Shown piece after piece: positions 10,388 to 38,355 of a DNA stretch of 54,317 nucleotides. The DNA lies in IMG/VR virus record IMGVR_UViG_3300045391_001808, positions 1-54,317 of that record. One strand, written 5' to 3'. Under the pieces are notes generated by a model. The model did no database searches, was not told the DNA's origin, and saw only the letters and a list, made by a program, of their open reading frames with translations. Within the stretch, counting starts at the first letter, position 1. Each line of letters opens with the position of its first letter. The translations under genes were made by a program, and so were the position numbers. Source of the stretch: a virus.

Positions 10388-12396
10388 TGGGATTCCTACT
10401 GCAGTGCGACGGGACTAACAACCCGCGGTGTGAGTGTAACGGCGGAGGCGGTACGCCCTGCCTCATCTACGAAAACGCCACCCCGGAAATCCCCATCCAA
10501 TCCGGAGTTGGCGGCGTCCCCTCAAACACCATCATCAGCATCAGGGTGTTTACGACCGTCACTTTGGCCGACGACGAAACGGCCCGGATTAAGCTGTCGA
10601 TCGTTGACGACGACAACTACTGGTATGCCGAAGTCAAAGCCGGCCCGTCTGGCTATCTGAAGCTATTTAGCCGCATTGGTGGCGTTGAGACCGAGAGAAC
10701 AAACAGCGACGGGGTTTGCACCATCGCACGCGATGCCGGGACGTTTGGCTTTTGCGCGTCTCTTGGAATCAATGCCTCGATTGGAATGTTCACGATTTTG
10801 GCGTCGGTCACAGGTAGCGGTGCGGGCTATACGACCGAGTTTATTCAATCTGAAGCCGCGTTTACCAGTGGAGAATGGGGTGTTGAGTCTGATGGCACGG
10901 TTGCTGATTTATCGGTGCAACGCTATCTGAATAAGTGCCCGAAGTGCAGTAGCAATCGGACATTCTGCGACCGACTAAACATGATACCGCCCGACATGAA
11001 TGCGAGCGGGGCAGGGCCTTGCATCTATCCCGGCGAGGAACAGTATTCCGATTACCCTCTGATTGTTGATTTTGGCGGCGGCGGATGGACTTCGGTAGGT
11101 ACTGGAATTTCGCTATGCGAAGTCGTTGCTGGCGAAATCAAGCTAGTGACCGGCGCTATTTTCGGGATGATTTGCGGCCTTCCGTCAGCCTGCATTCTCG
11201 GATGGAATGGCGACGACAACCCGCTTTTTCCGAGAGCCTGCCTTGGCGGCCGATACTGCACGGTCATCAACGGCGACCAAAGGCAGGAGGTACTGGATAT
11301 CGAACTTACAATATCCGGCCCGAACTGCCCTTACGATCATCCGTGGGCGCTGCTCGGAATAAGGCTAAGCAACTTCGGTCACCCGGATTTGCCTTGGGTC
11401 GACGTGCATTACGAAGTTCACCTAGACCAGTGCCAGAGATGGGATTTAACGTTAGGTGCTGTGATCACGCTGACGAAAACCCACGAATCGCACAATCCAG
11501 TCAACCGGGCGTGCGACGGCGAATTGCCAGACACAATCACGTTTCGCCTATCTGATACCACAGACCCGCAGACCGAAAGCTGCCTTCCCGGCGACCCAAC
11601 GCTACCGCCAGACACCACGGTCCGGTGTGCTGAAATTCGACGATGCGGCTGCGACACAATCGACTTTATCTACCTGCTGGTAGCAGACGGCTACGTTGTC
11701 GGCGACATCATCAAAATAAGCACAACAACACCGGATACGCCGGCCGGTGCTATCAATCGCCCGCATATCGAGTGCTGGGAGATTATGAAAATCTCTGACT
11801 CGAATCACCGATGCATCTTCGATGGTGTTGACGAGAACCCGCTAGCCACTGTTCCGCGATGGGTGAACATCATCAGCGAACACGCCACCTGCGAAGAATG
11901 CCTGCCCTACTGCAACTGCTGCTCATCCGCCGGCACCGACACGACGATTGACGGTGTTGTGGTTTCCGTCGGCGATGCGACCGGCATTGACGCCGATTAT
12001 CAATACGAGTGGGACCACTACGTGAAGGGCAACACGTTCGTTCCGAACAACCACGAAGGCACGTTTGTTCCCCCGGGTTGTTCGTACGGAAACTATATCC
12101 AGAACGTGGCCGAAGATCCCGGCCGCACCATAGAGTTTTTATTCAACGTCACCAACAGCAATCCGAGCGACCCCGATGCGGCGTGTAGCTGGGAAGTGAC
12201 GATTCAGGCATCCGGCGGAGCGCGGTCAAACTGGGTGCTGACTTGGGTTGCATTCTCTCCGCCGGCCAAATCGGAAGTCTGTGGAGAGATGCCGATAACG
12301 ATGAACTTCGTGAGCGGGTCCGACGCCGTTCATTCCGACTTTCCGACGACGCTAAGCCTGTCGCCTCTTGCCGCTTGCCCAACCCCCGAAGTATGA
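10387..12396 (+). CDS. large cysteine-rich tail-end protein (function unknown)
   Basis: ATG 10387 overlaps the upstream TGA (the ORF opens earlier at 10270 with an Arg-rich junk extension). It is 669 aa with many Cys (CDGTNNPRCECNGGGGTPC...). Codon usage is visibly more A/T-ending than in the neighbours. Confidence 0.65.
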   Translation: MGFLLQCDGTNNPRCECNGGGGTPCLIYENATPEIPIQSGVGGVPSNTIISIRVFTTVTLADDETARIKLSIVDDDNYWYAEVKAGPSGYLKLFSRIGGVETERTNSDGVCTIARDAGTFGFCASLGINASIGMFTILASVTGSGAGYTTEFIQSEAAFTSGEWGVESDGTVADLSVQRYLNKCPKCSSNRTFCDRLNMIPPDMNASGAGPCIYPGEEQYSDYPLIVDFGGGGWTSVGTGISLCEVVAGEIKLVTGAIFGMICGLPSACILGWNGDDNPLFPRACLGGRYCTVINGDQRQEVLDIELTISGPNCPYDHPWALLGIRLSNFGHPDLPWVDVHYEVHLDQCQRWDLTLGAVITLTKTHESHNPVNRACDGELPDTITFRLSDTTDPQTESCLPGDPTLPPDTTVRCAEIRRCGCDTIDFIYLLVADGYVVGDIIKISTTTPDTPAGAINRPHIECWEIMKISDSNHRCIFDGVDENPLATVPRWVNIISEHATCEECLPYCNCCSSAGTDTTIDGVVVSVGDATGIDADYQYEWDHYVKGNTFVPNNHEGTFVPPGCSYGNYIQNVAEDPGRTIEFLFNVTNSNPSDPDAACSWEVTIQASGGARSNWVLTWVAFSPPAKSEVCGEMPITMNFVSGSDAVHSDFPTTLSLSPLAACPTPEV

Positions 12397-12905
12397 GCGA
12401 TTGTCAATTCTTCCACGAAGGCCGCTGCACTCACAAGCTATCGCGCCCAGCGATGATGCCGGTGAATAAGGCGACTTGCGACGCGTGCAAGATCAAGGGC
12501 GAGGTGTGCGAGCCGTACAAGCCAGCGGAGCATAGATACTTGCCGGTGGTTCAGCGGCCTTATGTGGCCGTGCTGGACGGCGTTGGGACTACACTAACAA
12601 AGCTGTTTGAACAGTTCGGCATTAGCAAGGAAGAGTCAATACCAAAGGGCTGTGGCGGCACCTGCGACCAGTGGATCCAACTGATGAATAGCTGGGGGCC
12701 TGAAGGATGTCGCCAGCGCCGTAAGATGATCGTCAAACGTCTCGATGAAATGAAATCGGCGATGACCTGGAAAGCGAAACTAAAGGCGGTGGCAGCAGCA
12801 TTGACGAGCAGTTTCAAACCCAACCCTCTAGACATCTCCGGGAGCTTCTTAGATGAAGCCATCAGAATACAGACGGTACGTGATAACTCTAGCCCGCAGG
12901 CCTGA
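12393..12905 (+). CDS. Cys-rich hypothetical protein
   Basis: ATGA overlap at 12393. The product is 170 aa (MSDCQFFHEGRCTHKL...CDACKIKGEVCEPYKP...CGGTCDQW). Confidence 0.55.
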   Translation: MSDCQFFHEGRCTHKLSRPAMMPVNKATCDACKIKGEVCEPYKPAEHRYLPVVQRPYVAVLDGVGTTLTKLFEQFGISKEESIPKGCGGTCDQWIQLMNSWGPEGCRQRRKMIVKRLDEMKSAMTWKAKLKAVAAALTSSFKPNPLDISGSFLDEAIRIQTVRDNSSPQA

Positions 12906-14160
12906 CCGCCTCGAGCAGTTCGCGGCGTGCTGCCCACTGTCCGACGTCTCGCCAGTATACGGTGTGGACTCGACAGCGTGCCAGCCGCCCAGGTGGTGGC
13001 GTGGGCCGCTCGGTGCGTGGGGCTGTTACCGCTCGCACGTCAACATCATCGAACACTGCCTCAACGCCGAGATCGAGCAGGTGACGATCTTCGAGGACGA
13101 CGCGGTGCCGTGCGAGGACTTCCAGTCACGGTACGACGCGTTCATGTCAGAGCTGCCACACGACTGGGGTATCGCGTACCTGGGCGGCGAGCTGCTGTAC
13201 GCTAGGAAGCAGCTGCCAGCACGTGTGACACAGAACGTGTACCGGCCCTTTAACGTGAACCGCACGCACGCGTACATGGTGCACAGGCGGGCGATGCTGC
13301 GCGTGTACAAGCACCTGTGCGACTTCCCGTGGGACCGCAAGCACCACGTCGACCACTGGCTCGGCAAGCTGCACGAGCAGTCCGACGACGTGTACTGTCC
13401 GGCACGATGGCTGTTCTCACAGCGAGGTGGCGACACGAGCGACGTCGACGGCCGCGTGAAGGACATGTCGAAGTTGGTCTCCGAACCCAAGCAGCCCGAG
13501 GTGATTAGCAGAGCCAGCCGTCCTACGCGTGTCGTGAGGACGGCTGGCTCTGGTCGCCCGCCTGTGATCGTGATCGGACTTCACCGCAGCGGGTCGAGCT
13601 GTCTGGCGGGCGTTCTGGCCAGGCTCGGTGTCTACATGGGCCGCAACTTTCGCGGCTACGAGCAGGACGGTGGCCACGAGGACGGCGGTCTCGCCCACAT
13701 CCTCGAGACCTGGATGCCGTTTCCAGGGTTGGCCACGAGGGTAGCAGATGGTGTCCTGGCCGCACGATTGAGGCGCTGGTATTCCCAACACAGACTGGGA
13801 GGCGATGTGGTGGGACTCAAGTACCCGCACCTGTGTATGGTGCCGGTGCGAGAGATATGGCCCGACGCGACCATCATTCACGCGAGCAGGCCGCTCGAGG
13901 AGAGCGTCGAGTCGCTCGTGCGACGCTGTCCGAAGAAGGACCCGCTGAAGCTCGCTACTCTGCAGAACGCGCTCTGGGACGCGAAGCAGGAACTCGTGCA
14001 GGGCGCCTACACTGTCGAGTACTCGAGACTGCTCGCAGATTCCGTGACGGAGACTTCCCGACTCTGCGAGTACCTGAAGCTCGACGGCAGGCTGGTCGAT
14101 GAGGCTGCAGCCTACGTTTTACAGCGAGATTTGCCTGTTGACACGACGGCCTCTATATAG
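12853..14160 (+). CDS. glycosyltransferase family 25 domain fused to a sulfotransferase-like domain
   Basis: The N-terminus (YVITLARRPDRLEQF...GAWGCYRSHVNIIEHC...VTIFEDDAVPCEDF) follows the GT25 pattern. The C-terminus has P-loop-like PPVIVIGLHRSGSSCLAGVL and a later IIHASRPLEESVESL, resembling the PAPS 5'-PSB/3'-PB motifs. Confidence 0.7.
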   Translation: MKPSEYRRYVITLARRPDRLEQFAACCPLSDVSPVYGVDSTACQPPRWWRGPLGAWGCYRSHVNIIEHCLNAEIEQVTIFEDDAVPCEDFQSRYDAFMSELPHDWGIAYLGGELLYARKQLPARVTQNVYRPFNVNRTHAYMVHRRAMLRVYKHLCDFPWDRKHHVDHWLGKLHEQSDDVYCPARWLFSQRGGDTSDVDGRVKDMSKLVSEPKQPEVISRASRPTRVVRTAGSGRPPVIVIGLHRSGSSCLAGVLARLGVYMGRNFRGYEQDGGHEDGGLAHILETWMPFPGLATRVADGVLAARLRRWYSQHRLGGDVVGLKYPHLCMVPVREIWPDATIIHASRPLEESVESLVRRCPKKDPLKLATLQNALWDAKQELVQGAYTVEYSRLLADSVTETSRLCEYLKLDGRLVDEAAAYVLQRDLPVDTTASI

Positions 14161-18292: not shown

Positions 18293-18367
18293 GGTGCACT
18301 CGTCTAACGGTAGGACGCTGCCCGGTACGTAGAGGCAGAAATGAGGGTTCGACTCCCTCATGCACCG
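18293..18367 (+). tRNA. tRNA-like element with non-canonical anticodon loop
   Basis: Acceptor ggtgca/tgcacc pairs 6 of 7. The D arm is gtct-AACGGTA-ggac. The T arm is gaggg-TTCGACT-ccctc. The anticodon stem ctgcc/ggcag is 5 bp but encloses 11 nt (cggtacgtaga). No CCA is encoded. Confidence 0.4.
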
Positions 18368-18409
18368 CTTTCTTGTGACGGACCCGACGACTCTCCAATC
18401 AGAGCCAAG

Positions 18410-21259
18410 ATGCCAGGACCGGCAATCAACGTACTAGCAGAACTCGAGCGCTGCGGCGTGAGGTACGACTGGGCTGGTGCCGACGAGGTGCGGGTGCTGT
18501 GCCCGTTCCACGACGACTCCACTCCCACTTGCCACATCAACGTAGCCAAGCGAGTCTTTCACTGCCCGGCTGCAGGCTGTGGCGAGGCGGGTGATGTAGT
18601 CACGTATCTGGCCCGCCTACTCAAGACCACCCGTCAAGTACTGCTGGTCGACTTGAGCAAGCGGTACAAGCTCGACGCCGACAAGGTCATCGACGCGGCA
18701 CTCGTCGAGCGGTACCACGCCGGGATATGGAAGGCCGAGCCGCTGCTGGCAGAGCTCAGGAAGCGCGGCGTCGACGACGACCTCGTGAGGAAGTACCGGC
18801 TCGGTGTCGACGACGGCCGCATCACCATACCAATCACGAACGAGGGCGGCCTGGTAGTCAACGTGCGTCGCTACCTGCCGGGCGCCCCTGGCTCGCAGAA
18901 GATGAAGAACAGCCGCGGCCATGGCGCCATCAGGCTGTGGCCGCTCGACCAGCTCAAGTACGACAGCGTGGTGGTGTGCGGTGGCGAGATGAAGGCCATC
19001 GTCGCAGCACGGGAGCTCAACCCGCACGGCGTAGGCGCGGTGACTACTACTGGTGGCGAGGGCAACTGGGAGCCAGCCTTCAACCAGCACTTCAAGGACA
19101 AGCGGGTGTGGGTCTGTCTGGACGTCGACGAGGAGGGCCAGATAGCCGCACGAGACCGCTGCAACGTGCTGTACAGGTTCGCTGAGTGGGTGGGCAACGT
19201 CGTGCTGCCACTCGACCACGATAAGTACCCACACGGGGACATCAACGACTTCGTGGCTCTCGAGCATGGATCGTTATGGCCCTTGCTCGAGAGCTGCCCA
19301 GGCTGGGAGCTCCTCACTCGTGACACACAGCTCGACGACTCCGAGCCCGAGGACGTCGACCTCACCTCAGCAATGGCGGCGAGGTTCGTAGGCAAGCGGG
19401 TCAAGCTGCGAGCAGTCGTCGCGGCTATGGACACAGCGCCGTACGTCGTGCCTAAGAAGGCCGTCGTCAACTGCACACGAGACCAGAAGGCACTGTGCAG
19501 CGTGTGCCCCGTGTTCGGCACGGAGGACGGCAGCACGGTCGACGTGCATCCCGAGAGTGCCTCGGTGATCGACATGGTAGGCACACCGCGTGGCGTGCAG
19601 CGTGAGGCACTGATGTTGGCAGCTGGCATACCGCTGGCCTGCAAGGTAGCAGGGTTCGAGCCGACAGAATACTACAACGTCGAGGACGTGCGGGTATCGC
19701 CACAGCTGGAGATAACGAACCGCAGCGTCGAGCGTGTGATGCAGCCGGCGATGTGCATCGGCATGAGCATGGAGCTCAACGAGGGCTACGAGCTGACGGG
19801 CAGGATGTACCCGCACCCTAAGACGCAGCAGACGACGCTACTCATAAGCAAGTACTCGCCGGTGCAGGACGCCCTGTCTACGTACGAGCCACGCGACCTG
19901 GAACGACTGCGGGCGTTCCAGCCGGACGAGTGGACTGAGGAAGGGATCGAGGCGAGGCTGGGCAGTATCTATACTGACTTCGAGGCCAACGTCACTCGCA
20001 TCTACCAACGGCGCGACCTACACCTCATGATAGACCTCGCCTATCACAGCCCGCTGCTGCTCCACTTCGACGGCAAGACTATGAAGGGCTGGGTGGAAGT
20101 GCTCGTCGTGGGCGACAGCGCCCAGGGCAAGACGGAGACTGCCGTCGGGATGATGCACCACTACGGGCTCGGGACGAAGGCCGAGTGTAAGAATGCCTCC
20201 GTCGCCGGTCTCCTGGGCGGCCTGCAGCAGATGGGACAGAGGTGGTTCGTCACGTGGGGCGTGCTGCCCACACACGACAAGCGGCTCGTAATACTCGAGG
20301 AGCTCAAGGGTGCCAGCGTCGAGGTGATCGCGAAGCTGACCGACATGAGGTCGTCTGGCATAGCAGAGATTGACAAGATCGAGAAGAAGCGCACTCACGC
20401 CCGCACCCGGATCGTCGCCCTAAGCAACCCGCGGTCCGACAGGCAGATGGCGACGTACAACTTCGGCATAGAGGCGGTGAAGGAGCTCATCGGCAACCTG
20501 GAGGACGTGCGACGGTTCGACGCAGCCCTGGTCGTGTCGTCATCAGAAGTCGACCCCGCGGTGCTCAACACACTCCGCAGTAGCAGGCCGCACGTGCCGC
20601 ACCAGTACACGTCAGAGCTGTGTCGCAGTCTGGTACTCTGGGCGTGGACGAGGACGCAGGACGAGGTACTGTTCGAGCCCGAGGCCACCGACATGGTGAT
20701 GCGAGAGTCCACGCGACTGTGCGACCAGTTCACCGACGCGCTGCCACTCGTGGACCGCGGGTCGATGCGCAACAAGCTCGCCCGACTGTCGGCGTCGCTG
20801 GCCTGCCGCACATTCAGCACAACAGAGGGTGACCTCACACGAGTAGCCGTGCGCCAGGCTCACGTCATGTACGCCTCACACTGGCTCAGTCGAGTCTACA
20901 ACTCAGCACACTTCGGCTACGCCGACTACACGGCTGCTACACGACTCACGCAGTGCCTCGTGGACGAGCAGCTGGTCCTGGATCGCGTCAACGAACTGCC
21001 GTGGCCGACTGACTTCGCCAAGCAGTGCCTACACACCACGAAGATCGACCTTACTGACATACAGGACTGGTGCGGTTGGGACAGGTCAGAGTCGATGGAC
21101 CTGCTCAGCTTCTTGGTGAGGAAGCACGCGTTCGTTCGCGACGGCAGGTCGTACAGGAAGACACCGCCCTTCATCAAGTTGCTGCGTCTGGCAACTGAGA
21201 GCGGCAAGTTGACAGACAGGCCGCAGTTCGTACGCGAGCCTAGAAAGCAGGAGTTCTGA
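18410..21259 (+). CDS. DNA primase (zf-CHC2 + TOPRIM) fused to an MCM-like AAA+ helicase domain
   Basis: zf-CHC2 is CPFHDDSTPTCHINVAKRVFHCPAAGCGEAGDV. TOPRIM is VVCGGEMKAIVAA...VWVCLDVDEEGQIAA. The C-terminus LVVGDSAQGKTE...ASVAGLLGG...RLVILEELKG...MRSSGIAEIDKIEKK...ARTRIVALSNP parallels MCM Walker A/B and the sensor region. ATG 18410 is chosen because ATG 18341 lies inside the tRNA-like element. Confidence 0.8.
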   Translation: MPGPAINVLAELERCGVRYDWAGADEVRVLCPFHDDSTPTCHINVAKRVFHCPAAGCGEAGDVVTYLARLLKTTRQVLLVDLSKRYKLDADKVIDAALVERYHAGIWKAEPLLAELRKRGVDDDLVRKYRLGVDDGRITIPITNEGGLVVNVRRYLPGAPGSQKMKNSRGHGAIRLWPLDQLKYDSVVVCGGEMKAIVAARELNPHGVGAVTTTGGEGNWEPAFNQHFKDKRVWVCLDVDEEGQIAARDRCNVLYRFAEWVGNVVLPLDHDKYPHGDINDFVALEHGSLWPLLESCPGWELLTRDTQLDDSEPEDVDLTSAMAARFVGKRVKLRAVVAAMDTAPYVVPKKAVVNCTRDQKALCSVCPVFGTEDGSTVDVHPESASVIDMVGTPRGVQREALMLAAGIPLACKVAGFEPTEYYNVEDVRVSPQLEITNRSVERVMQPAMCIGMSMELNEGYELTGRMYPHPKTQQTTLLISKYSPVQDALSTYEPRDLERLRAFQPDEWTEEGIEARLGSIYTDFEANVTRIYQRRDLHLMIDLAYHSPLLLHFDGKTMKGWVEVLVVGDSAQGKTETAVGMMHHYGLGTKAECKNASVAGLLGGLQQMGQRWFVTWGVLPTHDKRLVILEELKGASVEVIAKLTDMRSSGIAEIDKIEKKRTHARTRIVALSNPRSDRQMATYNFGIEAVKELIGNLEDVRRFDAALVVSSSEVDPAVLNTLRSSRPHVPHQYTSELCRSLVLWAWTRTQDEVLFEPEATDMVMRESTRLCDQFTDALPLVDRGSMRNKLARLSASLACRTFSTTEGDLTRVAVRQAHVMYASHWLSRVYNSAHFGYADYTAATRLTQCLVDEQLVLDRVNELPWPTDFAKQCLHTTKIDLTDIQDWCGWDRSESMDLLSFLVRKHAFVRDGRSYRKTPPFIKLLRLATESGKLTDRPQFVREPRKQEF

Positions 21260-21260
21260 C

Positions 21261-21863
21261 ATGAGAGAAGTACTGATGGTAGCAGAGTTCCACGAGAAGC
21301 TCGGCATCTCTCCCAGACAGCGGATGAGGTACAAGCCGTCGCAGATGCTGCTACAGTTCTCGCACGCGATCCACACAATGGCGCACGAGCTGGAACGCCG
21401 CGTGAATGACCCGGACGCGCGCTACCTTCGCGCCCACCTCGACCTAGAGGAGACGGCAGAGTTCGTCCACGCACTCGCGTGCGGGGACGAAGTCGCGGCA
21501 CTGGACGCGATGGCTGACAAGCTGTACATACTGTGCGGCCACGCCGACGTGTTCGACTTGCCGCTGGGCGCTGCGTTCGACGAGGTCCACCGGAGCAACA
21601 TGACGAAGAAGAAGCAGCCCGCAGACCCGAGTGCTGCTCGCGTGCGGCAGAAGGGGCCCAACTACTCGCCACCCGACCTGCGACGAGTACTACAGGAGCA
21701 TCGAGACGGCAGCCGCTGCAGCTGCGACTGGGACAAGATCCGACAGCTGGTACAGCTCATGCAGCACAGCCCGGAGATGAAGGAAGACATGCTGCACTAC
21801 GTAGACGCAGCACTCAAGCACGGAAAGACTCGTATGGAGACTCTAGGATGTACGACGCAGTAG
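21261..21863 (+). CDS. MazG-like all-alpha nucleoside triphosphate pyrophosphohydrolase
   Basis: LDLEETAEFVHAL...ALDAMADKLYILCGHA...AFDEVHRSNMTK matches the MazG-like NTP-PPase pattern. Confidence 0.7.
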   Translation: MREVLMVAEFHEKLGISPRQRMRYKPSQMLLQFSHAIHTMAHELERRVNDPDARYLRAHLDLEETAEFVHALACGDEVAALDAMADKLYILCGHADVFDLPLGAAFDEVHRSNMTKKKQPADPSAARVRQKGPNYSPPDLRRVLQEHRDGSRCSCDWDKIRQLVQLMQHSPEMKEDMLHYVDAALKHGKTRMETLGCTTQ

Positions 21864-23074
21864 GAATTCACGTATTCGCGGGCGGGTTCACAATGGGCGT
21901 TAAGAAGGTCATGAACTGTGAGACCCAGCTCGAGAAGCACGGCTTCGGTATCGAGACGGCCGAGGAAGTTGCCAAGGTGCAGGTGATCAACGGCGAGTGG
22001 CCAGACGTACCAGCGCAGATGGCGTTCGGCAACCCTCGCTGCACCGGGTTCAGCACGATCACGTCGGGCTACGACGAGACGGCACACGGGCCGTGGTCGA
22101 AGCAGACGTGTGACATACACGAGCTGTGCTCGTACGCGGCGGGCAAGTACGACATCGTGATATGGGAGTCAGTGCAGCAGGCTTACACGACCGGCAAGCC
22201 GCTGCTCGACTACCTGATCTCGGAGTACTTCGCGCCGCGAAACTACCGCGTGGCTCACGTGTTCATCAACGCCGCGTCGTTCAGCAACGCGCAGCAGAGG
22301 AAGCGATACTTCTTCGTAGCGTACCGCGACGACAGGAACTTCAACATCACGCCGCCAGTGATCGACCCGTACTATGCCACACTATATGACGCCATCTGGG
22401 AGGACAGGAACAGGGAAACTCGTGAGGTGAGGTTCTCTGCCAGCGACGAGTACGACCGAGACTGCTACATCAAGCTGACCGACAACGAGAAGGCGTGCGT
22501 GCCGTACCTGCCCACGGGCTGGGGGCTCAACACGCTTGCTCGGTTCAGGTACCAGTTCCTACCCGACAAGATGAAGTACGTCTGGGACACGAGAGTGAGC
22601 GACATGCCGTTCAGCCTGCACTGCATATCGAGGACGAACTGGCTACGGCCATGCCCGACCCTGCACTCCTCGGCCACGCGCTACATCCACCCGACGCACG
22701 ACCGACCGCTGACCGTCGGAGAGCTGGCAGCAGTCATGGGATGGGACGACATACCGCGTGGCAGGATGCCGGTGCCGCAGCTGGCCAAGGGTGTGGTGCC
22801 TGCTGTCGGCGAGTGGCTGGCACAGCAGGCAGCGGACTACCTGGACGGCAAGTGGGCCGGTGACGACTGGGAATCGTCGTACGACCCACACGACTGCGAG
22901 TGGAAGGGCAGGAGCGTGAACGGCGCCCGCGAGAAGGTCTTCGACCTGACCCGCTACGTGGGCTCACAATTCGACAGGTCGCGATACGAGGTGACGGATG
23001 ATGAACTATTCGACCATAGATACGGCCTGGGCAGAGACCATTCGAAGCCTGCTCGTCGAAGCCTCCCGACCTAG
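21848..23074 (+). CDS. DNA (cytosine-5) methyltransferase-fold protein
   Basis: Motif I IHVFAGGFTMG, motif IV FGNPRCTGFS, motif VI WESV, motif VIII QQRKRYFFVAY, motif IX RPLTVGELAAVMGW and a variant motif X KGVVPAV are present. Start ATG 21848 (the ORF opens at 21533 with Arg-rich junk). Confidence 0.75.
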   Translation: MYDAVGIHVFAGGFTMGVKKVMNCETQLEKHGFGIETAEEVAKVQVINGEWPDVPAQMAFGNPRCTGFSTITSGYDETAHGPWSKQTCDIHELCSYAAGKYDIVIWESVQQAYTTGKPLLDYLISEYFAPRNYRVAHVFINAASFSNAQQRKRYFFVAYRDDRNFNITPPVIDPYYATLYDAIWEDRNRETREVRFSASDEYDRDCYIKLTDNEKACVPYLPTGWGLNTLARFRYQFLPDKMKYVWDTRVSDMPFSLHCISRTNWLRPCPTLHSSATRYIHPTHDRPLTVGELAAVMGWDDIPRGRMPVPQLAKGVVPAVGEWLAQQAADYLDGKWAGDDWESSYDPHDCEWKGRSVNGAREKVFDLTRYVGSQFDRSRYEVTDDELFDHRYGLGRDHSKPARRSLPT

Positions 23075-23984
23075 CGAGCGTGGTGACATGCGCGAGGTCG
23101 TCGGCTACTCGTTCTCGCTGATGGGAGACAGGACGTTCCTGTGCAACGAGCGGCGGGCGTTGTCGCCGACGTATGCCGCTGCAGAGACGCTGTGGTACCT
23201 CGGGCGCGGTGGGAGCGTGGAGATGATGAAGGCCTACGCGGCCCAGTACGTGAACTACACGGAGAGCGACGGCACGGTGTATGGCGCTTACGGTGCGAGA
23301 ATAGCTAGGAACTTGTACGAGACTACAGACGGTGTGGTCGAAGACGACCTCCTTGACCTCGCCGTAGAGCAGCTGCGGCACCGGCCCGACACGAGACAGT
23401 GTGTCGTCTCGCTGTGGCGGCCCGACGACATCAGCGTGGTCGCGAAGGACCGGCCCTGCACGCTGTCGTGGCAGTTCTTAAGACGGGACGGGTACCTGCA
23501 CATGGTGGTGAACATGCGGAGCAACGACGCGTGGCTCGGGTTGCCGTACGACGTGTTCGCGTTCACGTGCGTGCAGCGCCTGGTCGCTGACACCCTGAGG
23601 CTCGACGTCGGTAAGTACGTTCACAACGTCGGCAGCATGCACCTCTACGAGAAACACGTGCCACAGGCAAGACAGGCCCTGGACTACGAGCACGCTGGAA
23701 GACAGCACCTGTGGCAGATACCCAGCCGCATGGAAGAAGTGCCGCAAGCTATTGAGGCAGAGAGCAAAGTTAGGCATACAGGATGCGAGAGAGCTCTCTT
23801 CACTGGCGACATGCTGCGAGATCTATACTACTGCTGCGCCGACAAGTGGGTGAGCGGCCTGCGACAGTACTTACAATCACCCGCGCTAAGACACATGATG
23901 GAGGTTCACGATGCTCGTAATCGAGGGCGGAGACCTAGTGGGGAAGACGACGCTGGCAAAGAAGCTGGTAGCACGACTGGCTGA
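22998..23984 (+). CDS. ThyA-family pyrimidine C5 transferase, predicted dCMP-specific (hydroxymethylase or methylase)
   Basis: The catalytic Cys is in DRPCTLSWQF (codon 23457-23459). MRSNDAWLGLPYD carries Asp (23550-23552) where thymidylate synthase has Asn (LGLPFN). GSMHLYEKH is also present. Confidence 0.7.
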   Translation: MMNYSTIDTAWAETIRSLLVEASRPSERGDMREVVGYSFSLMGDRTFLCNERRALSPTYAAAETLWYLGRGGSVEMMKAYAAQYVNYTESDGTVYGAYGARIARNLYETTDGVVEDDLLDLAVEQLRHRPDTRQCVVSLWRPDDISVVAKDRPCTLSWQFLRRDGYLHMVVNMRSNDAWLGLPYDVFAFTCVQRLVADTLRLDVGKYVHNVGSMHLYEKHVPQARQALDYEHAGRQHLWQIPSRMEEVPQAIEAESKVRHTGCERALFTGDMLRDLYYCCADKWVSGLRQYLQSPALRHMMEVHDARNRGRRPSGEDDAGKEAGSTTG

Positions 23985-24507
23985 CGAGGGCTACGTCTAC
24001 AAGCACTTCTCGCGACTGCCTGACAAGTTCGACAGGTTCTGGGGCTACGTCGAGAACGCTGTGACGCGCTCGGTGCAGGACCGCTTCCACATGTCAGAAG
24101 TCATGTACAGCGAGATGCGTGGTGACGACACCATGCTGTGCCCGCAGCGGTACCGCATGGTAGACGGCCACCTGCGTACACGAGGCGCGCTCACAGTGAT
24201 CGTCACGTGTGACGAGCGACTGCTGGCGAGTCGGGCACCACACGAAGACGAGATGTACGGCCGAGACCAGATACTGGCAGTGAATAGCATGTTCGAGCGG
24301 GTCGTCCAGGAGCGAGGCCAGTTCTCGCATCACGTTCACGGGCTCTACCACATGGACTTCGACGTGGCAGTAGAGTGCGACGACAGCAAGCCGTACCCCG
24401 ACGACTACGACGTGGATCACATCATCACATCTTACAGCAGGAGACTAGCGACATGGCAGAGAGTAATGTCACAGGAACAGTACTCGCGACGATTACCAAC
24501 TGTATAA
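23911..24507 (+). CDS. P-loop (d)NMP kinase, thymidylate-kinase-like
   Basis: MLVIEGGDLVGKTTLAKKL resembles the Tmk EGxDGxGKTT P-loop. GGAGG lies upstream of ATG 23911. Confidence 0.65.
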   Translation: MLVIEGGDLVGKTTLAKKLVARLADEGYVYKHFSRLPDKFDRFWGYVENAVTRSVQDRFHMSEVMYSEMRGDDTMLCPQRYRMVDGHLRTRGALTVIVTCDERLLASRAPHEDEMYGRDQILAVNSMFERVVQERGQFSHHVHGLYHMDFDVAVECDDSKPYPDDYDVDHIITSYSRRLATWQRVMSQEQYSRRLPTV

Positions 24508-24806
24508 AGAAGCACGACCTCAAGCCAGACCACCACCAGATGTACCGACTGGTGGAGTGCCTGGAGAAGGACGGCACGTCGCGAGCGCTGAGAGCTCGTG
24601 ACACGTTACTAGCACTGATGTCTCGGTCGTTCATGCCAGCCGCGTCGTGGTTCATCGGTCCGGGCCTTCGAGATCTAGGAGTGGAGATAGATGCTGACGT
24701 TCGACAACGGCGGAAGACTGATAACTCGCGAAGACGAGCTGCCACCCGTGCCGGAAAGAATCGAGCGGCTGTACCTCGACTTCGAGACGAGAAGCGGCGA
24801 TCCTAA
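24453..24806 (+). CDS. hypothetical protein
   Basis: 117 aa from ATG 24453 (GGAG upstream). The 3' part overlaps the polymerase start by 116 nt, so the true extent is uncertain. Confidence 0.35.
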   Translation: MAESNVTGTVLATITNCIKKHDLKPDHHQMYRLVECLEKDGTSRALRARDTLLALMSRSFMPAASWFIGPGLRDLGVEIDADVRQRRKTDNSRRRAATRAGKNRAAVPRLRDEKRRS

Positions 24807-27612
24807 GCTCGACTCGCTCCACCCGTGGCACAACTGCAGGCCGTGCGGGTTCGCGGTCACGTGGGACGACGTCCCGGGCGCGTGGTACGTCCCCGTGGAC
24901 CACGACTTCGGGCCAGTCGTGCAGCGCGAGGCGGCCTACACGTGGCTCCGTGACATAATGTCTCGGAGTCACGTGTGGGTCAACCACAACGTGAAGTACG
25001 ACGCGCACGTGTACGAGCTGAACGTCGGGAGGATCCCTCCAGGCGTTCAGCTCCGGTGCACGGTCGTGCGGGCGAAGCTGGTCGACTCGGACCGACAGTT
25101 CCGTGGTGGGTACGGCCTGGACGTGTTGAGCTCGCAGTGGCTGCACGAGGACATCAGTGCCGTGGAGCAGGCGATGGCACCTTACCTCTACCGCTGCAAG
25201 GACTACGGCGTGGTGCCGTCGGACGTCATGGGTTCGTACGGCTGCCAGGACGTGATCACAAACCGTAGGCTGGATCGTTACATCGACAACGCTATGGCAT
25301 CCCAATGTTGTGAGATAGCGCTGGTAGAGCAGTCGCTGACTCGCGTGCTGCTTGACGTGGAGCAGCGTGGCATGATGGTCGACCCCACCGAGCTCAAGAT
25401 CGCCGAGCTCAGGACGATGACCCAGATGCTGCAGCTGGAGGCAGAGCTTGAGGTTCTCGTCGGCAGGTCGTTCAGGCCGCACGTCAACGAGGACTGCTAC
25501 GACGTGCTGTGCACGCAGTACGGGCTGCCCGTCATGGGGTGGACCGACAAGACAGAAGACGGCGAGGAGGGCGGCAACCCGTCGTTCGACAAGCAGGCAC
25601 TCGCGGGCTACATGGTGCACCCACTGGCCCCGAAGGACGTCGTGAGTCGGATCGTAAAGTATCGCAAGCTGTCTACGTTCAAGTCGCTGTTCGTAGACGT
25701 GCTGTCTACCGAGCACGTGGACGGCGTGATCCACACGCAGTACAACCAGCTCGTGCGCACCGGCCGGCTCAGCTGCAAGTCACCCAACATGCAGCAGCAG
25801 GACAAGTCGAGCAAGATGCTGTTCCACCCGCGACCTGGGTACAGCTTCATGTCGTGCGACTACTGCTTACCGGCTGGCACGCTGATACCGACGCCGTACG
25901 GTGACAAGCCGATAGAGATAGTTGCCGCCAACTTGATGCCAGTACTGTCTGTGACAGACAGTGGAGAGCTTAAATTCTGCGCGACCTCGAGAGGTGGAAG
26001 AGTTGGATTCGGCCAGATATTCAAGATCACTTTCACCGACGGGACTACATTCGAGTGTACGAGCGACCATCCGATGATGAGACTGGACGGCACGAGTGTT
26101 AAGTGCAAGGACTTGGTCTCAGGAGACAGGATGGCACACGTTGTTGACACGACGATAGGGAAATATACATACTGGAAACTTAAGAGCAGCATCTACAGCA
26201 AGCACAAGCTTGTAGCTGAGTGGGCGACAGGATCTAAGATAGATAGCGACCTCTACCACGTGCACCACATCGACGAGGACAAGAATAACTGGTGCGTGAG
26301 TAACCTAGAGGTAAGAGGTTACTCTGAGCACATATCAGGCCATAGTAGGCAACGATATCTGTCGCAAGATCATGTAAAGCGAGTAGAAGCACTGCGCGAA
26401 GCTCTTAAGAATCGAAGATCATACGCATATGATGAGAACCCAAACTGGCAGGGTGGTAAGATCGTGGTTGCATGTGACACGTGCGACCGACCATTCGAGA
26501 AGTGGCCTTCGCAGGATACTAAATACTGCTCGAAAGAGTGCCGTAGCGCTGGCCGATCAGCGAGTCATCAGAAGCGAAGAGTTGAAGTTACCTGTGAGAC
26601 GTGCAGTAGGACCTTCGAGACTCTGCCCGGAAGACCTCGAGTCTTCTGCTCGAGAGCTTGCTCTAACCGATCACCTGTAAAGACTGCAAAAGACGATAAG
26701 AACTATGAGGTGCTAAGCGTCGAGTACGCTCGCGACGACTGGTACTACAGCATAACTGTTCCTGAGACTGGTACTTACGTCACTACGAACGGGCTCATAA
26801 ATTCACAGAGTCAGATCGAGTTCCGGTTCATAGTCCACTATATCGACGAGCCACACGCCGTGGAGGCTTACAACCGCGACCCAGATACAGACTTTCACAC
26901 GTGGGTCGCCGAGCTCTGCAAGATCAAGAGGAAGCCGGCCAAGACTGTCAACTTCATGGTGGCCTTCGGCGGCGGCAAGAAGAAGACGATCAAGACGCTG
27001 TCGAAGAACGACGACGTGATCGGCGACATCACGCAGCAAGTCGAGAAGCTAATCGCAGAGGGCAGGGTGGACCGCGCCGACGCGAAGCTGGTGTTCGACC
27101 AGCTCTGCGAACGGAAGGCCGTTGACATGTATGAGACCTACCACGCCACGCTGCCCAACCTCAAGCGCACGTCCCGACGCGCCGCGTCAGTCTGCGAGCG
27201 GCGGGGCTACGTCTACACAATCATGGGCCGGCACCGGCACATCCCGAGGGACAAGGCGCACATAGCGTTCAACACGATCAACCAGGGCAGTGCTGCTGAC
27301 CTGATGAAGGAGCGCACCGTGGCGCTGGCCGAAGCGATCCGTGGCAGGGACATCCACATCGTCGCGAGCGTGCACGACGAGGTGCTGCTCGAGATGCCAA
27401 CTGCTGTCGCACACGATCCTCGGACGGCTCGTGACCTCGCGAACCTGATGGAGCACCCGCCGTTCGAGCTGCGAGTGCCCATCAGGTGCAGCATAGGAGT
27501 GAGCGACCACACGTGGGCGCAGGCCGGCAGCGACGACGTCAGCGGCCCTGTGTCCTACGATCCCAGCGAGTGCGGGCTGTTCGATCACGTTCCTAACACG
27601 TCGACACACTGA
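24691..27612 (+). CDS. family A DNA polymerase (3'-5' exo + pol) interrupted by an intein
   Basis: Exo I is LYLDFET. Motif A is split as SCDY / SQIEFR. Motif B is KPAKTVNFMVAFGG and motif C is VASVHDEVLLE. Confidence 0.9.
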   Translation: MLTFDNGGRLITREDELPPVPERIERLYLDFETRSGDPKLDSLHPWHNCRPCGFAVTWDDVPGAWYVPVDHDFGPVVQREAAYTWLRDIMSRSHVWVNHNVKYDAHVYELNVGRIPPGVQLRCTVVRAKLVDSDRQFRGGYGLDVLSSQWLHEDISAVEQAMAPYLYRCKDYGVVPSDVMGSYGCQDVITNRRLDRYIDNAMASQCCEIALVEQSLTRVLLDVEQRGMMVDPTELKIAELRTMTQMLQLEAELEVLVGRSFRPHVNEDCYDVLCTQYGLPVMGWTDKTEDGEEGGNPSFDKQALAGYMVHPLAPKDVVSRIVKYRKLSTFKSLFVDVLSTEHVDGVIHTQYNQLVRTGRLSCKSPNMQQQDKSSKMLFHPRPGYSFMSCDYCLPAGTLIPTPYGDKPIEIVAANLMPVLSVTDSGELKFCATSRGGRVGFGQIFKITFTDGTTFECTSDHPMMRLDGTSVKCKDLVSGDRMAHVVDTTIGKYTYWKLKSSIYSKHKLVAEWATGSKIDSDLYHVHHIDEDKNNWCVSNLEVRGYSEHISGHSRQRYLSQDHVKRVEALREALKNRRSYAYDENPNWQGGKIVVACDTCDRPFEKWPSQDTKYCSKECRSAGRSASHQKRRVEVTCETCSRTFETLPGRPRVFCSRACSNRSPVKTAKDDKNYEVLSVEYARDDWYYSITVPETGTYVTTNGLINSQSQIEFRFIVHYIDEPHAVEAYNRDPDTDFHTWVAELCKIKRKPAKTVNFMVAFGGGKKKTIKTLSKNDDVIGDITQQVEKLIAEGRVDRADAKLVFDQLCERKAVDMYETYHATLPNLKRTSRRAASVCERRGYVYTIMGRHRHIPRDKAHIAFNTINQGSAADLMKERTVALAEAIRGRDIHIVASVHDEVLLEMPTAVAHDPRTARDLANLMEHPPFELRVPIRCSIGVSDHTWAQAGSDDVSGPVSYDPSECGLFDHVPNTSTH
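25864..26802 (+). mobile_element. intein with HNH homing-endonuclease domain, inserted in PolA motif A
   Basis: Block A is CLPAGTLIPTPYG (Cys1 at 25864), block B is ECTSDHPMM, HNH is HVHHIDEDKNNWCVSNLEVRGYSEHISGH, and there are two CxxC...CSxxC repeats. Block F/G is WYYSITVPETGTYVTTNGLIN followed by Ser (Asn codon 26800-26802). The segment is visibly lower in GC. The 3' boundary is ambiguous by 6 nt (SQ|SQ). Confidence 0.8.
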
Positions 27613-32031: not shown

Positions 32032-32672
32032 AGAAAGTATGCAAGACTGCAGGATACGAGTACGAGTGGCTGAGGACTGCCCCGCCCGGCACTGCTGTGC
32101 GAGTCCTGGATGCTGGGGACGGATGGTACACGTACGACTGGTACGACGGGCAGCCGGCGCTCCACGCGTCGCACGTGTGGCTCTTCATGAAGAAGCACGT
32201 GTGGGACTACGGCGCGGGGCCGGACTTTTGGATCGACAAGAACAGGTACGTCGACCACGTGTACGAAGTGTCACGAGGTCTGGACGTGCGCGATAGTTTG
32301 GTGACGCTAGTGCTCAACCAGATATGGACGCTGAGCGTCACACCGGTGCGGTACTGCCACGGCGACCTCACGCTGCTCAACGTCGTCGACGGTATGGACG
32401 GCCTGAAGCTGATCGACCCGTGCGACTGTCACGGCCTGCCGTGCAGGGAGCTCGACGAGTCGAAGCTCATGATGTCACTCGACGGCTGGGACTTCGTCAA
32501 GACTGGCAGGTGGCCCGACGTGCGATCACGGATCCCGGGCGTGCGTCGCGTACATCACGCGCTGCTGGCCACTCACTACCTACGAGCGCTCGCTCACAGT
32601 GAAAAGCATTGTGAGCGGGCGCTGGAGTTCTGTCGTGACCGGTTCTACGAAATCGCTGAGGCCATAACATGA
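32028..32672 (+). CDS. protein-kinase-like fold phosphotransferase (APH/choline/sugar kinase-like)
   Basis: The catalytic loop is YCHGDLTLLNVV, followed by LKLIDP (a DxD/DFG-like metal site). Confidence 0.6.
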   Translation: MKKVCKTAGYEYEWLRTAPPGTAVRVLDAGDGWYTYDWYDGQPALHASHVWLFMKKHVWDYGAGPDFWIDKNRYVDHVYEVSRGLDVRDSLVTLVLNQIWTLSVTPVRYCHGDLTLLNVVDGMDGLKLIDPCDCHGLPCRELDESKLMMSLDGWDFVKTGRWPDVRSRIPGVRRVHHALLATHYLRALAHSEKHCERALEFCRDRFYEIAEAIT

Positions 32673-33016
32673 AGAAAAAGACGTACCTTATCGACATCGA
32701 TGGCTGCCTGCTCCGCCACTTCGAGCTGGGCCCTGCCAAGCAGTGGTTCGAGACCGGACAGCCGCTGCCCGGGGCACGCGACTGTCTCGAGCGGCTCGAG
32801 ATGGACGGCGCGCACATCGTTCTGGTGACTGCCCGGCCTGAGGTGTTCAGGGAACTTCTCGTGAAGTCCCTGCACGCCCACGGTCTGGTCTACCACCAGC
32901 TCGTGATGGGAGTGACCAGCGGCGAGCGTGTGCTCGTCAACGACCAGAAGCTGAGCGGCAAGGCCGCTACGGCGATAGAGATGACCCGCAACTCTAACAT
33001 AGGGGACTGGATATGA
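32669..33016 (+). CDS. HAD-superfamily phosphatase
   Basis: Motif I is YLIDIDGCLL, motif II is VLVTARP, and the later acidic motif is VLVNDQK. Confidence 0.65.
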   Translation: MKKKTYLIDIDGCLLRHFELGPAKQWFETGQPLPGARDCLERLEMDGAHIVLVTARPEVFRELLVKSLHAHGLVYHQLVMGVTSGERVLVNDQKLSGKAATAIEMTRNSNIGDWI

Positions 33017-35294: not shown

Positions 35295-35539
35295 ATAAGA
35301 TAGTACTGACCGGAGTCGTGATGACCTTCATCACGCTGGCGGCGTTCATCATACTGGCGTTCACGATCGGATACGACGCCGGACGGCACTCGCGACACCG
35401 CGAGGTCGTAGACTACATCACCCGACAGAGCGTGCTGACACGACGACTGATACGGCTCGGCGACGAGCAGACGATGCGTGAGGTGGAGAAAGAATCCCTA
35501 ACACTGGAGAAAGACAATGGGTCAGATGGTAATTCCTAG
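35291..35539 (+). CDS. small membrane protein
   Basis: 82 aa. The N-terminal TM segment is IVLTGVVMTFITLAAFIILAFTIG. Confidence 0.55.
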   Translation: MNKIVLTGVVMTFITLAAFIILAFTIGYDAGRHSRHREVVDYITRQSVLTRRLIRLGDEQTMREVEKESLTLEKDNGSDGNS

Positions 35540-37897: not shown

Positions 37898-38355
37898 CGC
37901 GAAAATATGATGCGACGAAGAGGCGCGAGGACGCGGCGATCCGAAAGGCGCGGCAGGCGATGGAGTTCCTCGAGCGGATGGAGCGCCGCGAGCGGGTGAG
38001 AGCTCGCAGGAGGCCACGGCCCGAGGTGCCCGAGGACTACAGGTGCCCGAGGTGCGGGAAGACCCGTCTGCGACGCAGGCAGTGGCGGCTGGCCGAGGAC
38101 GGTAGCACCGTGTGCGTGACCTGCAGCAGGCAGCCGAGACCGCTGCCGCCAGGATGTGTCTGCCCGAGGTGCCAGAGGAGACTGCCGCGGCGTGAGCGGT
38201 GGGACATGCGCAGCGAGCCGCTCGTGTGCAGGCGCTGCTCGGCCGAGAGGAAGGAAGCTATGGAGGTACTCAGTGATGTCAGGACTTCAGTGGCTGGAGG
38301 AGAATCCCAGAGCAGTCCGATGGCTGTTGAGGAAGTACCCGAGCCACATGCATGA
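37894..38355 (+). CDS. double zinc-ribbon protein, Arg-rich
   Basis: ATGA overlap at 37894. It has two more copies of the CPxC...RW...VCxxC module (YRCPRCGKTRLRRRQWRL...VCVTC and CVCPRCQRRLPRRERWDM...VCRRC). Confidence 0.6.
   Translation: MTRKYDATKRREDAAIRKARQAMEFLERMERRERVRARRRPRPEVPEDYRCPRCGKTRLRRRQWRLAEDGSTVCVTCSRQPRPLPPGCVCPRCQRRLPRRERWDMRSEPLVCRRCSAERKEAMEVLSDVRTSVAGGESQSSPMAVEEVPEPHA

Follow-up and report, generated by a model that had tools for sequence, protein, structure and literature searches.

The viral contig analysed here (IMG/VR record IMGVR_UViG_3300045391_001808), which we refer to at its full length of 54,317 bp as the window, is a complete contig from the Joint Genome Institute (JGI) with a GC content of about 60% and with all of its genes on the + strand. 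Between a gene for a primase/helicase and the gene for a family A DNA polymerase (PolA), at positions 21261-24507, lie four + strand genes that we refer to as the cassette. They encode a MazG-like nucleoside triphosphate (NTP) pyrophosphohydrolase, a protein with the fold of DNA cytosine C5-methyltransferases (the MTase-like protein), a member of the thymidylate synthase (ThyA) family (the synthase) and a nucleoside monophosphate (NMP) kinase. The genes, and the codons on which much of the argument turns, are as follows.

21261-21863, + strand: MazG-like all-alpha NTP pyrophosphohydrolase, 200 amino acids (aa); Pfam PRA-PH, 2.6e-9
21848-23074, + strand: atypical DNA C5-methyltransferase-fold enzyme (the MTase-like protein), 408 aa; Pfam DNA_methylase, 2.5e-9
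22040-22042, + strand: codon of Cys65, the motif IV catalytic Cys of the MTase-like protein, within GNPRCT(G/A)FS
22787-22789, + strand: codon of Lys314, in motif X (QIAKGVVP) of the MTase-like protein, at the position of M.HhaI Asn304
22998-23984, + strand: ThyA-family enzyme (the synthase), predicted deoxycytidine monophosphate (dCMP) hydroxymethylase, 328 aa; Pfam Thymidylat_synt (PF00303), 5e-28
23448-23450, + strand: codon of Asp151 of the synthase, at -3 of the catalytic Cys; equivalent of E. coli L143 and of Asp145 of the T4 dCMP hydroxymethylase
23457-23459, + strand: codon (TGC) of Cys154, the catalytic nucleophile of the synthase; equivalent of E. coli C146
23550-23552, + strand: codon (GAC) of Asp185 of the synthase; equivalent of E. 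coli N177 and of Asp179 of the T4 dCMP hydroxymethylase
23911-24507, + strand: thymidylate-kinase-like NMP kinase, 198 aa; P-loop and DRFHMSE..Y

Consecutive genes of the cassette overlap by 16, 77 and 74 nucleotides, and each of the four is preceded by a GGAG-type ribosome-binding site. A first-pass annotation of this DNA had given the extent of the cassette, the overlap of its genes and the positions of the TGC and GAC codons, and all of these coordinates hold. The real start of the MTase-like gene is the ATG at 21848, which is also exactly that of the JGI call P0121. The JGI call for the synthase gene (P0001, 298 aa) begins 30 codons late, at Met31, and we consider 22998 to be the better start because the later one cuts away an N-terminal helix together with the Arg that aligns with R21, a phosphate-binding Arg of E. 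coli ThyA. At the nucleotide level, a search with the cassette against 50,697 GenBank phages returned no match.

About 30 related viral contigs have kept the four genes together as a unit. Thirty IMG/VR loci were retrieved with an alignment of the MTase-like protein and synteny was counted over 32 loci; the order SNF2 helicase, two small genes, Pam3_Gp34-like gene, primase, MazG, MTase-like, synthase, kinase and PolA is found in 28-31 of the 32, with the MazG gene directly upstream of the MTase-like gene in 28/32. Of 28 relatives, 11 have a dCMP deaminase gene after the kinase gene. The synthase has its best non-self homologue (47% identity) on a 58-kb contig that carries, in order, primase, ThyX, PRA-PH, DNA_methylase, Thymidylat_synt and PolA, and ThyX, a flavin-dependent thymidylate synthase, adjoins the cassette in a few related loci (L002, L020 and L021). 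The closest relatives in GenBank are two near-identical records of uncultured Manatee Spring phages, with 41-44% protein identity.

Against the PDB the synthase matches ThyA (7e-26) and the CMP hydroxymethylase MilA (9e-26), and its Cys154 aligns with C146 of E. coli ThyA. That an Asp stands where thymidylate synthases have their specificity Asn, as had been proposed at the outset, is borne out: Asp185 aligns with this Asn of B. subtilis ThyA in a phmmer alignment and with E. coli N177 in three MAFFT alignments, and it aligns with the Asp of MilA. The N177D exchange switches the substrate of ThyA to dCMP (PMC13326640, PMC8670742). A second position bears on the product, in that methyl products are associated with a bulky hydrophobic residue at position 143 and hydroxymethyl products with an Asp or Glu there, at -3 of the catalytic Cys (PMC6400193, PMC13326640); in the T4 enzyme the residue is Asp145, to which the substrate water is bound, and its replacement by Asn (D145N) abolishes activity (PMC6400193). 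We compared seven signature positions (143/146/147/165/168/169/177, E. coli numbering) between the synthase, its relatives and four references, from E. coli, phage CF1, PaMx74 and Pam3 (gp52). Read in that order, they are as follows.

E. coli ThyA: L/C/H/Q/C/D/N
T4-like dCMP hydroxymethylase of phage CF1: D/C/T/M/N/D/D
PaMx74 enzyme, which makes 5-methylcytosine (5mC): N/C/P/L/S/D/D
Pam3 gp52, from an aGPT-Pplase thymidine-hypermodification cluster: D/C/N/C/N/D/N
Synthase of the window and all 27 distinct relatives: D/C/T/M/N/D/D

The synthase of the window equals the T4-type dCMP hydroxymethylase at 7/7 signature positions, and both Asp151 (the 143 position) and Asp185 (the 177 position) are invariant in 27/27 distinct relatives aligned. 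Judged by these residues, the synthase is best read as a 5-hydroxymethyl-dCMP synthase, that is, a dCMP hydroxymethylase.

We considered two other chemistries for an enzyme with Asp at position 177. The synthase might be a dCMP methyltransferase of the Xp12/PaMx74 type, in which case the DNA would carry 5mC and the MTase-like protein would methylate cytosines that had escaped. An Asp at the N177 position is by itself enough to convert a thymidylate synthase to a dCMP methylase, genes for a hydrolase, a deaminase and PolA lie close by in phages of this type too, and the presence of a C5-methyltransferase would be coherent, with both enzymes giving one product. However, position 143 is Asp in the window and its relatives and Asn in PaMx74, and it is the change from Asp to Asn that costs the T4 enzyme its activity; positions 147, 165 and 168 likewise follow the T4 enzyme and not that of PaMx74. 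There is, moreover, no dihydrofolate reductase (DHFR) gene in the window, although methyl transfer uses up tetrahydrofolate as its reductant and PaMx74 has such a gene (frd). A dCMP methyltransferase is, in our judgement, improbable. The synthase might instead be a flavin-dependent 5-hydroxy-dCMP synthase like RB69 gp48 or DLP3 gp80, feeding ether-linked glycosylation. It shares with those enzymes Asp177 and an acidic residue at position 143, and elsewhere in the window a glycosyltransferase of the family 25 (GT25) type is found as part of a fusion protein. Nevertheless, the RB69 and DLP3 enzymes are marked by D169N (PMC13326640), and the Asp at position 169 (in RSNDAW) is kept in the synthase and in all of its relatives, while the GT25 fusion is not conserved among them, which makes this alternative very improbable.

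The synthase departs from ordinary thymidylate synthases in other respects as well. It falls below every NCBIfam equivalog cutoff for thymidylate synthases, its best score being 92 bits where 327 are required; the match to Pfam Thymidylat_synt covers only profile positions 46-227 of 266, and in place of the C-terminal tail of thymidylate synthases, which closes over the folate, the synthase has an unmatched extension of about 90 aa. The genes that flank the cassette, and the gene most relevant to thymidylate supply, are these.

18341-21259, + strand: primase/helicase, 972 aa, flanking the cassette upstream
24691-27612, + strand: PolA with an intein; Pfam DNA_pol_A (7e-41), Intein_splicing and HNH_3
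35517-36383, + strand: ThyX; Pfam Thy1, 8.3e-35

The Thy1 match upholds the earlier statement that a separate ThyX is present, and ThyX is predicted to be a source of deoxythymidine monophosphate (dTMP) distinct from the synthase.

The two remaining enzymes of the cassette would fit on either side of a dCMP hydroxymethylase. The MazG-like protein matches phrog_671 (nucleotide pyrophosphohydrolase, 5.4e-20) and shows the acidic motifs EETAE and D..ADKLY; its closest relative in the PDB is DR2231 of Deinococcus (6e-8), which we take to be a dUTPase, more exactly a dUTP-specific MazG/dUTPase hybrid. It is plausible that the MazG-like protein is a dCTP/dUTP pyrophosphatase like gp56 of T4. The kinase has a P-loop (GGDLVGKTT, residues 6-14) and, from residue 57, the NMP-site motif DRFHMSE..Y; across a family alignment of 21 members the P-loop and DRFH(L/M)SE..Y, an NMP site of the dTMP kinase type, are seen. 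The family profile matches YorR of SPbeta (5.7e-13) and yeast dTMP kinase (7.5e-4) in the PDB, and the whole-protein Pfam score, 26.7, lies just under the gathering cutoff of 27. We best read the kinase as a putative kinase for 5-hydroxymethyl-dCMP (5hm-dCMP), and so as a functional analogue of T4 gp1. With Pam3_49, presumably a 5-hydroxymethyluracil DNA kinase and annotated merely as a nucleoside triphosphate hydrolase, it shares the P-loop only (E 0.009). Thymidine hypermodification of the M6/ViI/Pam3 type was considered for the cassette and rejected, given this limited likeness, the Asp177 of the synthase and the lack of an aGPT-Pplase in the window.

These data also bear on a more mundane explanation, namely that the cassette serves ordinary metabolism, with ThyA making dTMP, a dTMP kinase, a house-cleaning dUTPase, and DNA that is canonical save for sequence-specific methylation. 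Database annotations ('thymidylate synthase', 'thymidylate kinase') speak for it, as would the presumed dUTPase activity of DR2231, the closest solved relative of the MazG-like protein. Set against this are the invariance of Asp at the N177 position across the family, the failure of the synthase to reach any NCBIfam equivalog cutoff for thymidylate synthases, the missing folate-closing C-terminus and the fact that ThyX already covers dTMP; we give this explanation hardly any credence.

We think it probable that, as in T4, the cassette works before replication and brings 5-hydroxymethylcytosine (5hmC) into the phage DNA in place of cytosine. According to this proposal, the MazG-like pyrophosphatase would hydrolyse dCTP, and probably dUTP, to the monophosphate, and would in this way both drain the canonical triphosphate and feed the synthase. 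Cys154 of the synthase would attack C6 of dCMP while Asp185 reads the N3/N4 face of the cytosine, and the one-carbon unit would be taken from methylene-tetrahydrofolate. Asp151, which stands where thymidylate synthase has Leu143, would hold a water at the exocyclic methylene so that hydration takes place and not reduction, with 5hm-dCMP and tetrahydrofolate as the products; although the residues themselves are observed, we infer this chemistry from that of the T4 enzyme. The kinase would then produce 5hm-dCDP and host nucleoside diphosphate kinase the triphosphate, which the adjacent PolA would incorporate, and ThyX would give dTMP independently, with no need of a DHFR. Afterwards the MTase-like enzyme would either convert residual unmodified cytosine or derivatise 5hmC. 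The core of this proposal, a ThyA homologue specific for dCMP working with a kinase and an NTP pyrophosphatase by T4 logic, was already part of the first-pass annotation, and it gains from the full T4-type signature and from the conservation of the unit in about 30 contigs. The same annotation spoke of hypermodification; of this the 5hmC part is supported and the part that goes beyond 5hmC is not: in the clade, the cassette has no conserved companion gene for a glycosyltransferase, a TET enzyme, a carbamoyltransferase or CmoA.

Several observations weigh against the 5hmC pathway. T4 Ser94 belongs to a position, two residues before the catalytic Tyr, at which a Ser or Thr is the partner of D145 (PMC6400193); its equivalent in the window is Gly, such that the synthase reads G-A-Y (family consensus HGAYG), the T4-like enzyme S-N-Y and MilA T-A-Y. 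The assignment of the product relies on a residue code for which the literature uses correlative terms ('thought to', 'appears to correlate'). With DR2231, which we assume to be a dUTPase, as the closest relative of the MazG-like protein, the exclusion of dCTP may be incomplete. In the clade of the window the cassette also lacks a conserved partner for tailoring, such as a glycosyltransferase. Moreover, a C5-transferase is a paradox in this genome because the cytosines would already carry a C5 substituent: it is left without an obvious substrate if all of them do, so that either replacement is partial or the MTase-like protein does something else. Finally, the pathway leaves unexplained why the MTase-like gene is the best conserved of the four.

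The first-pass annotation had treated the C5-methyltransferase-fold gene as an aside, and yet it proves to be the most conserved and the most unusual part of the cassette. An AlphaFold model of the MTase-like protein (pLDDT 89.6) finds M.HaeIII as its first Foldseek match (1.4e-16; TM 0.71 on the target), followed by DNMT1/MET1, M.HhaI and CmoX (8yf3), the last of these at 7.5e-12. The residues of covalent catalysis, Cys65, Glu107 and Arg151/Arg153 (QxRxR), are invariant. Sequence methods reach only part of the protein: Pfam DNA_methylase covers profile positions 71-291 only, and both Pfam and hhalign align it only from motif IV or VI on, leaving residues 1-64 or 1-87 unaligned. Motif IV, GNPRCT(G/A)FS, has an Arg between the canonical Pro and Cys (invariant in 28/28 aligned homologues), and motif VI, WESVQQ, has ESV for the canonical ENV, again invariantly. 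Motif I, HVFAGGF, is two residues shorter than the canonical FxGxGG, or shifted; the motif II Glu is present as Glu29, at the end of strand 2, and the motif III Asp is absent, with Asn48 after strand 3. In motif X, QIAKGVVP, Lys314 replaces Asn invariantly in the family, and both an hhalign alignment to M.HhaI and a hidden Markov model alignment to 3g7u place it at the position of M.HhaI Asn304. The position adjoins that group of the cofactor which is transferred, and the cofactor half of the MTase-like protein is thus atypical. In CmoX the residue at this same position, Arg350, binds the carboxylate of a cofactor other than S-adenosylmethionine (SAM) (PMC12783734).

These odd motifs persist down to 31% identity, and more than 120 metagenomic homologues of the MTase-like protein are found at 50-65% identity. 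A search of 1.84 billion cluster representatives gave 150 clusters of the family with E<=1e-30, a number that rose to 775 with E<=1e-10. NPRC is found in about 110 of the nearest clusters (formed at 50% identity); more distant clusters have NPPC, and in them FAGGFTxGV and (W/F)ESV are unchanged. When 185,579 species genomes of bacteria and archaea were scanned, no member of the clade came up, and hence neither a prophage copy nor a clue to the host. The MTase-like proteins are a virus-only clade and a previously uncharacterised branch of the C5-methyltransferase fold. Among relatives of the window, the MTase-like protein shows 49-61% identity, as does the primase, compared with 33-47% for the synthase, 39-50% for MazG and 29-46% for the kinase, and its target-recognition region is nearly invariant.

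Because the clade of the window cannot by itself separate a link between the MTase-like protein and the hydroxymethylase from mere synteny, phages in GenBank provide an independent test. There, relatives of the MTase-like protein are found only in Micrococcus phage Kurnik, the metagenome-assembled DSL-LC01 and 13 Gordonia records, which belong to eight phages (GodonK, Phendrix, Sixama, Forza, Boopy, BlueNGold, Mareelih and GMA2); the Kurnik protein is matched over its full length by hhalign (99.7%, E 3e-25). A hydroxymethylase-type thymidylate synthase is present in 15/15 of these records, the 13 Gordonia records with the MTase-like gene being exactly the 13 with a ThyA homologue of the GodonK type, and D/C/T/M/N/D/D is also the signature of the ThyA homologues encoded by Kurnik, GodonK and DSL-LC01. 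An all-alpha NTP pyrophosphatase (MazG-like or dUTPase_2) lies beside or near the MTase-like gene in 4/4 clusters (Kurnik, GodonK, GMA2 and DSL-LC01); in these the MTase-like gene is downstream of or near the pyrophosphatase gene, with glycosyltransferase genes on the other side, and the DSL-LC01 cluster also has a gene for UDP-galactopyranose mutase. A second cluster, consisting of kinase, ThyA homologue, dCMP deaminase and PolA, was found in the three genomes examined, and the GodonK kinase, encoded beside the hydroxymethylase-type gene, is homologous to that of the window (hhalign 97.1%). Since the genes occur together although their order differs and the hosts of the phages are unrelated, we conclude that the four functions travel together. 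In our search of the literature on Kurnik, DSL-LC01 and GMA2 no DNA-modification data were found. We note as an aside that the Kurnik glycosyltransferase next to MazG has a faint GT25 match (E 0.0034) that is below the cutoff.

The actinophage proteins retain WESVQQ and GKGV and have the canonical NPPC in motif IV. Their motif I is degenerate (HGFGGGF and NGLGGGM; NGLAAFM in DSL-LC01), they do not conserve the Glu of motif II, and such degeneracy makes the use of SAM by the whole clade questionable.

What, then, might the MTase-like protein do? Most likely its substrate is a cytosine-type base flipped out of DNA that has already been replicated. It could simply be an ordinary SAM-dependent orphan C5-methyltransferase directed against host restriction, with no mechanistic link to the other three enzymes, and the DNA would then carry 5hmC, with 5mC at those sites where cytosine had not been replaced. 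The protein does have the fold of a DNA C5-methyltransferase, and the Cys of motif IV, the Glu of motif VI and the Arg residues of motif VIII are in place; Glu29 and Asn48 could still bind the adenosine of SAM; the wider family (xFAGGFTxGV, NPPC, WESV) is large and may merely have a variant motif I; and orphan C5-methyltransferases are common in phages. On the other hand, conservation at the level of the primase, with a near-invariant target-recognition region, is unlike that of methylases that evade restriction. In addition, motifs I-III cannot be aligned by Pfam or hhalign, a Lys replaces a cofactor-contacting Asn at the very position that CmoX has turned to Arg for another cofactor, and the actinophage relatives have lost the motif II Glu along with an intact motif I. 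Furthermore, every GenBank phage that has the MTase-like protein also has a hydroxymethylase-type thymidylate synthase, in several gene orders, and there would be no substrate if cytosine were fully replaced. We regard an orphan methylase as possible but somewhat doubtful.

We put forward with the same reserve, as a tentative idea and not as an expectation, that the MTase-like protein is not a SAM methylase and is the first representative of a virus-only group of enzymes which use the covalent mechanism, from Cys to C6, on DNA with no cofactor or with one other than SAM, and that it is an obligate partner of the dCMP hydroxymethylase and the NTP pyrophosphatase, shared with the Micrococcus and Gordonia phages. 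In one version of this idea it may exchange the hydroxyl of 5hmC by way of the exocyclic methylene, which would give a new 5-(X-methyl)cytosine; an engineered M.SssI joins 5hmC to thiols in vitro in a SAM-independent manner (PMC7176277). In the other it may hydroxymethylate residual cytosine in DNA such that none is left unmodified; M.HhaI hydroxymethylates cytosine in vitro by an atypical reactivity that is not methyl transfer (PMC7176277). We also considered whether the MTase-like protein is a carboxymethyltransferase like CmoX. This was rejected, as the protein has NPRC and not SPPC, Lys314 and not Arg, and no CmoA to accompany it, Lys314 being nonetheless suggestive. CmoA is absent from the window, in which the one gene with a Methyltransf_23 domain (40053-40739) matches only UbiG, and weakly; it encodes a class I SAM methyltransferase that is not CmoA, and it is not conserved near the cassettes of relatives.

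Several other genes in the window and in related loci deserve mention. An open reading frame (ORF) at 12853-14160, just upstream of the SNF2 helicase gene, fuses a GT25 domain (1.2e-9) to Sulfotransfer_3 (3.5e-8). Such a fusion occurs at the same place in one relative only (locus L043, 38% identity), and as a candidate for the missing tailoring enzyme it was rejected, being found within 10 kb in 1-2 of 28 relatives. At 32669-33016 lies a gene for a small HAD/NT5C-like phosphatase, and after it comes an ORF of 214 aa (the region extends to 33657); both recur in locus L042, and the N-terminus of the 214-aa product (LCDGPSTRLPNK) resembles, by eye, motifs of sugar nucleotidyltransferases and has no Pfam, NCBIfam or PHROG match. 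The genes for a sigma-70 region 4 protein (38156-38740) and for a product with weak matches to ParB-like nuclease, VapB and ADP-ribosyltransferase (41680-42696) are not conserved near the cassette in relatives.

Beside the cassette, some related loci carry further enzymes: a radical SAM/SPASM protein (5196-6194 in L025), an NTP_transferase-domain protein and a 415-aa protein (10230-12910 in L022) and a nucleotidyltransferase (4809-5414 in L017). These hint at further tailoring that is specific to particular clades. The Manatee Spring siphovirus (MW202657.1) has MazG, the hydroxymethylase-type gene, the kinase and the deaminase and is without the MTase-like gene. A 415-aa Manatee Spring protein encoded beside the ThyA homologue was tried as a diverged MTase-like protein and rejected (hhalign probability 0.9%, no Pfam or PHROG match). 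MW202657.1 encodes two proteins of about 400 aa (8945-10192 and 11206-12393) that have no Pfam or PHROG match and are unrelated to the MTase-like clade, and these may be alternative tailoring enzymes.

As to the remainder of the genome, the structural genes (200-12400 and 43099-53656) encode Mu-type head proteins (Portal_Mu, Mu F and Mu Gp36) with a Phage_cap_E capsid protein, and the same regions encode a lambda gpD-like decoration protein and a tape-measure protein. The primases of the closest cultured phages are only about 31% identical to that of the window. The PolA gene is interrupted in a DYSQIE-type motif by an intein of about 313 aa with an HNH endonuclease (approximately 25864-26802), its site having been read by eye around ...SCDY|C...LIN|SQSQIEF. 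The GC content of the intein is 0.505, compared with 0.621 for the exteins, which suggests that its invasion of PolA was recent.

The cassette carries the known theme of cytosine replacement into a large clade of uncultured phages that combine a Mu-like head with Pam3-like replication genes. The activity of the MTase-like protein, once resolved, could bring to light a novel DNA base or a novel way of ensuring complete modification, and the protein could yield a natural enzyme that acts on 5hmC and is of use for epigenomic chemistry. We note that cultured phages (Kurnik, GodonK, GMA2 and relatives) bear the same gene set, so that the question is directly testable.

Of the known systems, that of T4 is the one with which the cassette is most naturally compared: gp56 (dCTPase/dUTPase), gp42 (dCMP hydroxymethylase) and gp1 (dNMP kinase) provide the same three functions, by the same logic, as are predicted for the window. 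T4 gp56 is a member of the all-alpha NTP pyrophosphatase superfamily. The synthase is homologous to gp42 and identical to it at the seven signature positions, the equivalents of Asp145 and Asp179 included, although its identity to the T4-like hydroxymethylase is only about 27%, the equivalent of Ser94 is Gly and there is the C-terminal extension of about 90 aa. The kinase resembles thymidylate kinase and YorR and not gp1. The first-pass annotation had called the parts non-orthologous to those of T4; this is right for the kinase, which is clearly of a different family, and wrong for the synthase, a true gp42 homologue with the same signature. The window also differs from T4 in that its cassette genes form one overlapping operon beside PolA, in that its genome is of 54 kb and has Mu-like head genes, in having no alpha- or beta-glucosyltransferase and in the addition of the C5-methyltransferase-fold gene.

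Phage contigs with modified cytosine have already been described in print as marked by a thymidylate synthase with Asp177 next to PRA-PH, dCMP deaminase and PolA (PMC8670742, bioRxiv 2024.12.05.627091), and the novelty that the first-pass annotation had implied for the cassette was to that extent overstated. In the MetaGPA contigs this same neighbourhood was tied, both statistically and experimentally, to modified (enzymatically selected) cytosine in viromes. A DNA_methylase partner, which is invariant in the clade of the window, was not reported among the top co-occurring domains there. The cassette as a whole therefore belongs to a known kind, and the C5-methyltransferase-fold protein is the new element. 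Xp12 and PaMx74, the DNA of which contains 5mC, likewise have an Asp177 ThyA homologue beside a hydrolase, a deaminase and a polymerase; PaMx74, however, has Asn143, Pro147, Ser168 and a DHFR gene (frd) next to that of the enzyme, where the window has Asp, Thr, Asn and no DHFR.

The MTase-like protein has its own points of comparison. CmoX, which with CmoA forms the DNA cytosine C5-carboxymethyltransferase system of Synechococcus phage S-B43, shares with it a basic residue at the position of HhaI Asn304, but CmoX keeps the canonical contacts to the adenosine of SAM and has SPPC and Arg350, whereas the MTase-like protein has NPRC and Lys and no CmoA beside it. The phage pathway that combines a C5-methyltransferase with TET/5mYOX and glycosyltransferases also places a phage-specific C5-methyltransferase fold in a cytosine modification cluster, and the actinophage relatives of the MTase-like protein adjoin glycosyltransferases too. 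The window, however, has no TET or JBP gene, for which reason a TET-based route was rejected, and a route that methylates and then oxidises would be redundant there because the source of 5hmC would be the ThyA homologue, at the level of the nucleotide.

Kurnik, GodonK, Phendrix, Sixama, Forza, GMA2 and DSL-LC01 resemble the window in having an MTase-like homologue, an NTP pyrophosphatase and a thymidylate synthase with D143 and D177. They differ from it in the NPPC of motif IV, in motifs I and II that are more degenerate, in their actinobacterial hosts, in the presence of glycosyltransferases and in the division of the genes into two clusters, one with the glycosyltransferase, the NTP pyrophosphatase and the MTase-like protein and one with the kinase, the thymidylate synthase, the deaminase and PolA. 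Lastly, cyanophage Pam3 of Pseudanabaena (ON014755.1, 36598-42186) shares backbone genes with the window (Pam3_Gp34 and a gp32-like gene), and in the equivalent place upstream of its polymerase gene it has a thymidine-hypermodification cassette with aGPT-Pplase1 and 2, Nmad5 and a ThyA homologue that has D143 and N177. This comparison suggests that the position upstream of the polymerase is a slot in which one DNA modification system can be swapped for another.

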